A stretch of 64,000 nt of DNA, from the NCBI RefSeq assembly GCF_002854065.1, contig NZ_CP024147.1, one strand, 5' to 3'. The position numbers were made by a program. The DNA is from Escherichia coli (GTDB taxonomy: Bacteria; Pseudomonadota; Gammaproteobacteria; Enterobacterales; Enterobacteriaceae). Positions within the stretch are counted from its first letter, which is position 1. Every line of letters begins with the position of its first letter. Shown one piece after another: positions 54,901-57,900 of the stretch.

Positions 54901-57900
54901 ACCACTTTGATATCCACGGCGGCGGTTCAGACCTGATGTTCCCGCACCACGAGAACGAAATCGCGCAGTCCACCTGTGCCCATGATGGCCAGTATGTGAA
55001 CTACTGGATGCACTCGGGGATGGTGATGGTTGACCGCGAGAAGATGTCCAAATCGCTGGGTAACTTCTTTACCGTGCGCGATGTGCTGAAATACTACGAC
55101 GCGGAAACCGTGCGTTACTTCCTGATGTCGGGCCACTATCGCAGCCAGCTGAACTATAGCGAAGAGAACCTGAAGCAGGCGCGTGCGGCGCTGGAGCGTC
55201 TCTACACTGCGCTGCGCGGCACAGATAAAACCGTTGCGCCTGCCGGTGGCGAAGCGTTTGAAGCGCGCTTTATTGAAGCGATGGACGACGATTTCAACAC
55301 CCCGGAAGCCTATTCCGTGCTGTTTGATATGGCGCGTGAAGTGAACCGTCTGAAAGCAGAAGATATGGCAGCGGCGAATGCAATGGCATCTCACCTGCGT
55401 AAACTTTCCGCTGTATTGGGCCTGCTGGAGCAAGAACCGGAAGCGTTCCTGCAAAGCGGCGCGCAGGCAGATGACAGCGAAGTGGCTGAGATTGAAGCGT
55501 TAATTCAACAGCGTCTGGATGCCCGTAAAGCGAAAGACTGGGCGGCGGCAGATGCGGCGCGTGACCGTCTTAACGAGATGGGGATCGTGCTGGAAGATGG
55601 CCCGCAAGGGACCACCTGGCGTCGTAAGTAATTGCGCTATTGCCGGATGCGAGTTTTCGCATCCGGTTATCGTCTGCGCCACCACAACATTCCCATCAGT
55701 AGCATCCCCGGCAACCACACCCACATCAATTCAGAAATAATCACCTGATGCCCGTACGCTGTGGTGTAACGAGACAATGCAAACGGCGCGACTTTAATCA
55801 CCTGCCAGGGAGCGAAAAAGCGTTCATCTGACCACGGCCACAGCCAGCCAACGCCCTTACCGCCAGTGGTTACTGAATCCAGCAAGCTGTGCGATAGCAA
55901 CGAGACGGTTAAAAACAGCCAGCAGCGAATCAGCCCAGCCCTGAACCATCGGCGTCCAATCAGCACACATAACAGCGGGACAACAAACGCAAACACCAGC
56001 GAATGGGTAAACCCGCGATGACCAAAAACATTGCCGTAAGCAACGCCAAATTTAAACGACAATACGTCGGCGTCGGGCAGCATCGCCAGGATGATTCCGG
56101 CAAATAACAGACGCGGAGGGATGACTTTCGAACCCAACCCTAAACCAATGCATAGGGGAACGGCGGCGTGCGTAATAACGGTTGGCATGATGGTCGCTTC
56201 GGCAAAATGTCGATGCTATCAGCATGGATGAACGGGGCGTAGAGGGCAACAGTCTGAAAAGAGAACCGGCCTGTTGATACAGGCCGGGAAAGGGATCAGG
56301 CAACAACCTGTACGCTGTGACCTGCAAAACTCACTGTCTGCCCGGCGACGATTTTGCAGCGTTTGCGCGTTTCAACCGCGCCATCAACTTTCACCTGGCC
56401 TTCGGCAATCGCGATTTTCGCCTGCGCGCCGCTTTCGCTCCAGCCTTCCAGTTTCAGCAAGTCGCACAGCTCAACGTGCGGATGTTTACCTAAAGAAAAT
56501 GTCGCCATGTTACTCACCCTGTGGATCATGATATTCAACGCACGCCTGAAGCGTGTTTTCAATCAGCGTGGCAACCGTCATCGGGCCAACGCCGCCGGGA
56601 ACAGGCGTAATGTATGAGGCGCGTTTAGCCGCGTCTTCAAACACGACGTCGCCCACAACTTTGCCATTTTCCAGACGGTTGATGCCGACATCAATCACAA
56701 TTGCGCCTTCTTTGATCCAGTCACCAGGAATAAAGCCCGGCTTGCCGACGGCAACGATCAGTAGATCGGCATTTTCTACGTGGTGACGCAGATTTTTAGT
56801 GAAACGGTGAGTCACGGTGGTGGTGCAACCTGCCAGCAGCAGTTCCATGCTCATCGGGCGGCCAACGATATTCGATGCGCCAATCACCACGGCGTTGAGG
56901 CCGAAGGTATCAATGTTGTAACGCTCAAGCAGCGTGACGATACCGCGCGGGGTGCAGGGACGCAGACGCGGCGCGCGCTGGCACAGACGACCGACGTTAT
57001 AAGGATGGAAACCGTCCACGTCTTTGTCCGGATGAATACGTTCCAGCACTTTGACGTTATCAATACCCGCCGGTAACGGCAGTTGAACCAGAATGCCATC
57101 GATGGTGTTGTCGGCATTCAGCGCATCGATAAGCTCCAACAGCTCCGCTTCGCTGGTGGTTTCCGGGAGGTCATAAGAGCGGGAGACGAACCCGACTTCT
57201 TCACAAGCCTTGCGTTTGCTTGCGACATAAATTTGCGATGCAGGGTTACTACCCACCAGCACAACGGCCAGTCCTGGTGCCCGCAGTCCGGCTGCAATAC
57301 GCGCCTGAACTTTTTGAGCAACTTCAGAGCGCACCTGCTGCGCAATCGTTTTACCGTCAATAATCTTTGCTGCCATCAGAGAGAGGATTCCATCTGTTAC
57401 GTAGGTCGAAGGGGATGCGCCTATTTTGTCAGAAGCGGGGCGCGCTGTCAGGTTTCGTTTCAGATTTATCGCGTGAAGCGACCTCTTGCGAAGGTGAGGC
57501 GCACTGTCGCTGAGATTGAAAGCTTCATTTTTCGTCCATGATGGCGTTGTAAATCTGGAACTGATTTATTTCCTTGTCTAAGGATTAAGATAATTTAAGA
57601 AATACCTGACAATATAAAAAGAATTTTCAGCCTGGTAATTTACCGCTTCAGGTCTATATTTGTGTTGAATATATTTTGCGCGGAAGTATTCATCTAACGG
57701 GGCGCTCTATTTTTTAGAATAGAGTGCATATTTTCAATTAAGACATTCTTAGAGGATAAAAAGGAATTTAATACTATCAGTGTCTTAAATAAAGTAATCG
57801 GTTATATACGGATGTGGAGTCGATAAATGAGATTGAAGGAATATATATGAAATTAAGATTTATTTCGTCTGCGCTGGCTGCCGCACTATTCGCCGCTACG

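Follow-up and report, generated by a model that had tools for sequence, protein, structure and literature searches.

The folD-sfmA intergenic region of Escherichia coli: a conserved, probable folD promoter joined to a probably H-NS-silenced sfm promoter and leader orthologous to Salmonella PfimA

The intergenic region between folD and sfmA, the first gene of the "Salmonella-like" sfmACDHF fimbrial operon, was analyzed within a 64,000-nucleotide stretch of the Escherichia coli contig NZ_CP024147.1 (assembly GCF_002854065.1; hereafter the window, whose positions are used throughout). This spacer, at 57377-57846, is the already described H-NS-bound folD/sfm control region, allelic to that of E. 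coli K-12 and orthologous to PfimA of Salmonella, and in that sense is an ordinary feature. It is most probably a composite divergent control region, in which a folD promoter part adjoins an H-NS-silenced promoter and leader of the sfm operon. The first ~85 bp would serve as the housekeeping promoter and leader of folD and would be kept even where sfm has been deleted. The other ~385 bp would belong to the sfm-fimZ segment, with the last ~306 bp acting as a non-invertible promoter and a ~180-200-nt leader of sfmACDHF, orthologous to PfimA. The AT-rich (adenine- and thymine-rich) tract would be coated by H-NS and the intact operon silent in the laboratory, as published for K-12 and carried over to this strain at 99% identity. 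Activation would be expected from FimZ, whose gene stands at the opposite end of the cluster and which would act on the heptads at 57569-57602, and from antagonists of H-NS, SlyA being one. The FimZ part of this scheme is borrowed from Salmonella.

The spacer measured exactly 470 bp from the end of folD to the sfmA ATG at 57847, in agreement with the length of about 470 bp given in a first-pass annotation of the window. The same annotation had called the region very AT-rich, which held for the sfmA-proximal ~306 bp and not for the folD-proximal part. Guanine-plus-cytosine (GC) content was 38.3% for the whole spacer versus 53.5% for the window, and 1.9% of 470-bp segments were equally low. The folD side (57377-57540, 164 bp) was ordinary at 51.8% GC, and the sfmA side (57541-57846, 306 bp) fell to 31.0%, a value equaled by 0.27% of 306-bp segments, with a single lower site elsewhere in the window (~19.7 kb). 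The lowest-GC stretch of the window (19300-20300, 28-30% GC) is located in or adjoining a YadA-family autotransporter adhesin gene and a hypothetical gene; it was present in 1413 of 5426 E. coli genomes and resembles another accessory AT-rich adhesin locus. The K-12 MG1655 spacer was also 470 bp long and differed by 5 mismatches in the alignment. Compared with 46 orthologous folD-fimA spacers of other genera (39-47% GC, 306-575 bp), the E. coli spacer had the lowest GC content (38%, versus 40% in Salmonella).

Genome matches divided the spacer at a second boundary. folD and the first 84 bp were matched in 5424 of 5426 complete E. coli genomes, whereas 57461-57846 was matched in 4299 (79%) and missing from 1127 (~21%). 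In the sfm-less strain MNCRE44, homology ended at ~57461, argU (tRNA-Arg) began 270 bp from folD, and the entire sfmACDHF-fimZ block was gone. This block of ~6.7 kb is a presence/absence polymorphism whose left junction lies 85 bp away from the start of folD. Its right junction is ~60 bp upstream of the fimZ start, ~180 bp before argU (~14985 in locus L001). Both the genome matches and the MNCRE44 arrangement fit published reports that phylogroup B2 has lost sfm (PMC3559732; PMC3604780). The folD promoter-like site found by consensus scan was kept in sfm-less strains, and a block reading TATTTTGTCAGAAGC...CTGTCAG was near-invariant across 19 genera or species in the multiple alignment. We infer that the first ~85 bp of the spacer, which are GC-normal and conserved across genera, hold the folD promoter and leader. 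The spacer was 96-100% identical across ~4200 genomes. A length of 480 bp was found in a subset of strains (FORC_042 and O157:H7-type rows), which carried a duplicated GTCGCTGAG and one extra T at ~57766.

Orthologous loci were collected by scanning species-representative genomes with SfmD, which yielded 80 loci; the sole E. albertii locus among them (L060) begins within sfmD. In 46 of the 80, the sfmA/fimA orthologue had folD immediately upstream and fimZ downstream; the genera with this folD-fimA...fimZ order included Salmonella, Citrobacter, Enterobacter, Lelliottia, Leclercia, Yokenella, Trabulsiella, Pseudocitrobacter, and Pluralibacter. Because this synteny is common to 46 loci of other genera, the sfm cluster is, on gene order, evidently an old resident and no recent import, despite its GC content of 44.5%. 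The Salmonella enterica promoter PfimA, which is non-invertible and controlled by FimZ, FimY, FimW, Lrp, and H-NS (PMC3203922; PMC6527747), occupies the same site between folD and the major subunit gene. As in Salmonella fim, fimZ and a tRNA-Arg gene stand at the far end of the E. coli cluster, and both promoters have a long leader, with ~200 nt between the -10 homologue and the ATG. Unlike Salmonella, E. coli has no fimI, fimY, or fimW. Most relatives had ~650 bp between the genes for the major subunit and the chaperone, an interval that in Salmonella (L082) holds a fimI open reading frame (ORF) of 177 amino acids. E. coli had 219 bp there, and no remnant of fimI was detected in this 219-bp sfmA-sfmC spacer (tblastn with Salmonella FimI, E up to 10). 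Neither fimY nor fimW was found beside E. coli fimZ, where the 242-bp fimZ-argU gap had no annotated gene in K-12 or in the strain identical over the query. Salmonella fim is expressed and E. coli sfm is cryptic.

The published map of Salmonella PfimA places a FimZ site at -98 to -47, H-NS-type motifs at -100 to -92 (AAAATAAGA) and -51 to -43 (ATTAAAAGA), and Lrp motifs at -35 to -20 (PMC3203922). In the multiple alignment, four blocks were conserved on the sfmA side of the spacer: a heptad pair, AAAAG..TTT, TAATTTA, and a CATATT block; TAAGAA, AAAAGA.TTT, and TAATTTA were common to E. coli and Salmonella PfimA. By counting in the Salmonella loci, the heptad pair fell at ~-84 to -63 (within the FimZ footprint), AAAAGA at -48 to -43, and TAATTT at ~-10. 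The heptad pair, AAAAG..TTT, and TAATTTA coincide with the mapped FimZ site, the H-NS-type motifs, and the -10 element of Salmonella, which speaks for the composite control region set out above.

The inverted heptad TTTC(T/C)TA-N8-TA(A/G)GA was present in 62 of 66 orthologous loci of other genera, representing at least 15 enterobacterial genera, and was located ~175-335 nt upstream of the fimA/sfmA orthologues (loci L003-L082). The third and fourth positions of the left heptad (T3 and C4) were invariant across loci. This pair, a candidate FimZ box, presumably resembles the BvgA heptad. The right heptad of E. coli (TAAGAAA) is kept at a constant 18-nt distance from the AAAAG..TTT anchor, as in all loci. 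Unlike in Salmonella PfimA, the right half-site of E. coli is duplicated, with a second TAAGA 10 bp upstream, and the left heptad is displaced.

The anchor and TAATTTA were 8 nt apart in E. coli; of 45 other loci, 42 had a distance of 27-29 nt. Depending on the alignment, E. coli may have lost ~20 bp of core promoter matching Salmonella -39 to -21, which holds Lrp motifs 3 and 4. A firm call of this deletion was dropped, since an ungapped pairwise alignment scored equally and placed TATATT at the exact Salmonella spacing. The sfmA leader is predicted to be ~180-200 nt long under either -10 candidate. On the sfmA strand of the spacer, a simple scan for sigma-70 consensus promoters returned none, as would be expected if the promoter is weak and depends on an activator. 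The density of promoter-like signals (4 sites in 57300-58700 versus 4.3 +/- 2.2 in shuffles) showed no excess in this simple sigma-70 scan, and the "promoter island" property was not reproduced; the published claim of an island used another predictor, PlatProm (PMC3661553).

The K-12 folD/sfmA region has the same locus, genes, and AT-rich tract, and both H-NS occupancy and crypticity have been published there. The spacer is listed as K-12 promoter island 557105_351 with the H-NS code K, for the Kahramanoglou and Oshima sets of chromatin immunoprecipitation on microarrays (Panyukov and Ozoline 2013, PMC3661553, Table 1). By coordinate conversion, given the equal length of the K-12 spacer, this island would map to ~57517-57867, so that the AT-rich tract would be almost wholly inside it. 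According to PMC5797941, Korea et al. (2010) found sfm to be poorly expressed in the laboratory and repressed by H-NS, and found the constitutively driven operon to be functional and to promote binding to eukaryotic cells. Overproduction of SlyA raised sfmHF 2.6-fold (PMC5797941). The H-NS-silenced, cryptic chaperone-usher operon proposed in the first-pass annotation is in line with published work on K-12, where the spacer shows 5 differences in 470 positions. The H-NS high-affinity (nucleation) motif TCGATAAATT was matched with at most 2 mismatches at three places in the spacer (57463, 57637, and 57820) versus ~0.5 expected from the window density, and the last of these was a 9/10 match, the other two having 2 mismatches each.

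Several points weigh against the composite, H-NS-silenced and FimZ-activated control region as set out above. H-NS motifs are modestly enriched (3 versus ~0.5). H-NS binding and silencing in this strain would follow from K-12 literature at 99% identity, and the results of Korea et al. (2010) are quoted second-hand. The FimZ step is weakened in that the site is rearranged specifically in E. coli and both fimY and fimW are missing. At the N8 position, E. coli carries AGGATTA (3/7), which leaves the left heptad off the canonical spacing. The predicted positions of the -10 element and the transcription start site are split between two candidates, TAATTT and TATATT. Within the literature searched, no paper ties FimZ to the expression of sfm in E. 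coli, and fimZ has been said not to be known as a fimbrial regulator in this species (PMC2408971).

These points bear on a second explanation, in which sfm is silent mainly by damage to an ancestral FimZ/FimY-dependent promoter in the Escherichia lineage and H-NS coating is secondary. In this proposal the FimZ heptad site would have been rearranged, ~20 bp of the -35/Lrp-motif region would have been lost, and fimY, fimW, and fimI would have disappeared. It draws on the canonical heptad spacing that E. coli lacks, the shortened anchor-to--10 distance, argU directly following fimZ, the missing fimI, and the most AT-rich spacer among the orthologues. Two further points tend the same way: PMC3604780 describes five residues deleted from the donor strand of SfmA and doubts natural function, and the cluster has been lost from B2 (PMC3559732). 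However, the 20-bp deletion is alignment-dependent, the ungapped alignment giving a good TATATT hexamer at the Salmonella spacing. Five intact structural genes and a spacer this uniform in ~4200 genomes point to continued constraint or a recent common origin, not to free decay, and H-NS repression was reported to be relievable (PMC5797941). Decay as the main cause is considered rather unlikely, and it is compatible with H-NS coating. A more specific proposal is that TTTCYTA-N8-TARGA is the FimZ recognition element, that Escherichia remodeled the promoter (right half-site duplicated, left displaced, ~20 bp of the -35/Lrp region lost), and that sfm is cryptic since FimZ cannot activate it, not merely by H-NS coating. 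This proposal is doubtful.

A cis-acting leader RNA is very unlikely to contribute to the silence. A hairpin at 57702-57727 with a U-rich tail could act as an attenuator, or the leader could hold a small RNA or riboswitch. The allele of this strain has a stable stem-loop (-14.5 kcal/mol, z = -5.2), which is followed by AUAUUUUCAA and would lie ~40-55 nt downstream of either candidate start site. However, its stability dropped to -10.7 kcal/mol in K-12 and -7.5 kcal/mol in FORC_042, whose substitutions break stem pairs and are non-compensatory. The U-tract is short and interrupted, and in the multiple alignment neither Salmonella nor Citrobacter nor any other genus shared the hairpin. Rfam 15 gave no family at E <= 0.1 in 57200-58700; the sole match (mir-316, E = 0.49) was attributed to chance and fell outside the spacer. 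The spacer contained no small conserved ORF, only chance ORFs of 20-48 amino acids, and Tandem Repeats Finder returned no rows.

A fimS-like phase switch, in which a recombinase flips a promoter segment held between inverted repeats, is largely refuted and extremely improbable, since its supports are weak, imperfect AT-rich inverted repeats (for example, 57550-57569 with 57843-57862, 70% complementary; 57457-57468 with 57550-57561, 92% over 12 nt) and a sfm-side spacer found in two places in at most 50 of 4299 genomes, against which no perfect inverted repeat of at least 9 bp bracketed the promoter (sought with seeds of 7 and 6), the spacer did not contain the fimS repeat TTGGGGCCA, the flanking genes are folD and sfmA with no recombinase (the sole nearby integrase being prophage intD, beyond argU), 4171 genomes had at least 80% coverage in one place with all 24 full-length sequences among the matches listed in a single piece, and the Salmonella orthologue is non-invertible (PMC3604780; PMC2408971). 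The check for an invertible element suggested in the first-pass annotation was accordingly negative by repeats, neighboring genes, and genome arrangement. Like E. coli fimS, the spacer is an AT-rich, H-NS-influenced regulatory region that precedes the gene of a type 1-like major pilin. Unlike fimS, it is not flanked by 9-bp inverted repeats, genes for the FimB/FimE recombinases are absent, and nothing points to two orientations. The two loci are evolutionarily unrelated (PMC3604780).

Table 1. Features of the folD-sfmA spacer and neighboring genes, in window coordinates
Feature	Position	Strand	Sequence or length	Basis or remark
folD	56510-57376	minus	288 amino acids	Divergent from sfmA; NCBIfam FolD equivalog (541.7 bits) and RefSeq annotation of a strain identical over an 801-bp query
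folD promoter-like site	57423-57451	minus	-35 CTGACA (57446-57451), 17-bp spacer, extended -10 TGACAAAAT (57423-57431)	Consensus scan
Junction of all-E. coli DNA and sfm-fimZ segment	57461-57462			Genome matches
9-bp unit	57506-57514	plus	GTCGCTGAG	Occurs as a tandem duplicate in some strains; window aligned with K-12 and FORC_042; 811-bp matches
AT-rich tract	57541-57846		31% GC	sfm-specific promoter and leader region; composition
Heptad elements	57569-57602	plus	TTTCCTT (57569-57575), TAAGATA (57586-57592), TAAGAAA (57596-57602)	Counterpart of TTTCYTA-N8-TARGA; putative FimZ site by Salmonella analogy
H-NS-type motif homologue	57617-57626	plus	AAAAGAATTT	Homologue of Salmonella ATTAAAAGA(GTTT), -51 to -43, overlapping the FimZ site; multiple alignment and 18-nt spacing from TAAGA
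Candidate -10 no. 1	57636-57641	plus	TAATTT	Aligns with Salmonella PfimA -10; implies a ~20-bp E. coli-specific deletion just upstream
Candidate -10 no. 2	57655-57660	plus	TATATT	32 nt after AAAAGA, the Salmonella spacing if without deletion; pairwise alignments and counting
Terminator-like hairpin	57702-57737 (stem-loop 57702-57727)	plus	GCGCTCTATT-TTTTAG-AATAGAGTGC then ATATTTTCAA	Inside the predicted sfmA leader
H-NS nucleation motif match	57820-57829	plus	TCGATAAATG	9/10 match to TCGATAAATT
sfmA, major subunit	57847-58389	plus	180 amino acids	ORF-track start GTG 57814 (191 amino acids) spurious
sfmC, periplasmic chaperone	58609-59301	plus	230 amino acids	Profile 1-230 of 230
sfmD, usher	59332-61941	plus	869 amino acids	Profile 1-860 of 860
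sfmH, adhesin	61954-62961	plus	335 amino acids	Intact ATG
sfmF, minor subunit	62972-63487	plus	171 amino acids	ORF-track start ATG 62864 (207 amino acids) spurious
fimZ (3' part)	63490-64000	minus	170 of 210 codons	Runs past the window end; profile positions 55-210 for internal ORF

The genes around the spacer are given in Table 1. NCBIfam profiles were covered end to end by SfmA, SfmC, SfmD, SfmH, and SfmF, and a check for frameshifts and premature stops found none in the five full-length proteins, so the operon is intact as first proposed. From folD to fimZ, identity with K-12 was 98.8% with two indels in total and no frameshift or premature stop. fimZ is cut by the window end; it was complete (210 amino acids) in strain 100416 (L001), which was 100% identical over the 801-bp query (57200-58000). 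The ORF-track starts of sfmA and sfmF do overrun the true ATGs at 57847 and 62972, as had been suspected. For sfmA, an AAGGA at 57836-57840, a signal peptide (MKLRF...), and the RefSeq annotation concur; for sfmF, the profile match began at residue 37 of the longer ORF, with GGAG just 5' of the ATG and a signal peptide (MRRVFF...). The findings on this region, these confirmed start codons among them, carry little weight beyond annotation. With two exceptions, the uneven composition and the truncated fimZ, the first-pass description and interpretation were right.

Relative to K-12, this strain differs in allelic detail alone: an intact sfmH ATG, an extra GATTAC in sfmD, and a more stable leader hairpin. 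The sfmD indel is one extra in-frame GATTAC (60802-60807); two tandem copies stand at 60796-60813 versus one in K-12, an in-frame 2-amino-acid length polymorphism of the usher. The sfmH start codon (61954-61956) is an ATG with a good AAGGA ribosome-binding site here, and K-12 has a 1-nt deletion (AT-A), which accounts for the alternative start given to sfmH in the K-12 annotation and for its being 8 codons shorter there. K-12 may make less SfmH adhesin, or one altered at its N-terminus. The sfmA-sfmC spacer (58390-58608, 219 bp) is likewise AT-rich (33.8% GC), and a sigma-32 peak from genomic SELEX (systematic evolution of ligands by exponential enrichment) has been reported in that spacer in K-12 (PMC5493296). 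The ORF-track start of ybcJ (56296-56562) also overruns, the ORF having 88 amino acids versus 70 by profile and RefSeq, which begin at residue 19.

Within the published work considered, the junction at ~57461, the cross-genus heptad pair with its E. coli rearrangement, and the possible 20-bp promoter deletion were not met; the advance is modest and partly alignment-dependent. What had been described as one 470-bp AT-rich region resolves into a conserved, probable folD promoter and a ~385-bp sfm-specific region. If a conserved FimZ-type heptad pair has indeed been rearranged in E. coli, this would give a simple reason, of specialist interest, why an intact and ancient operon is silent in E. coli and active in Salmonella.

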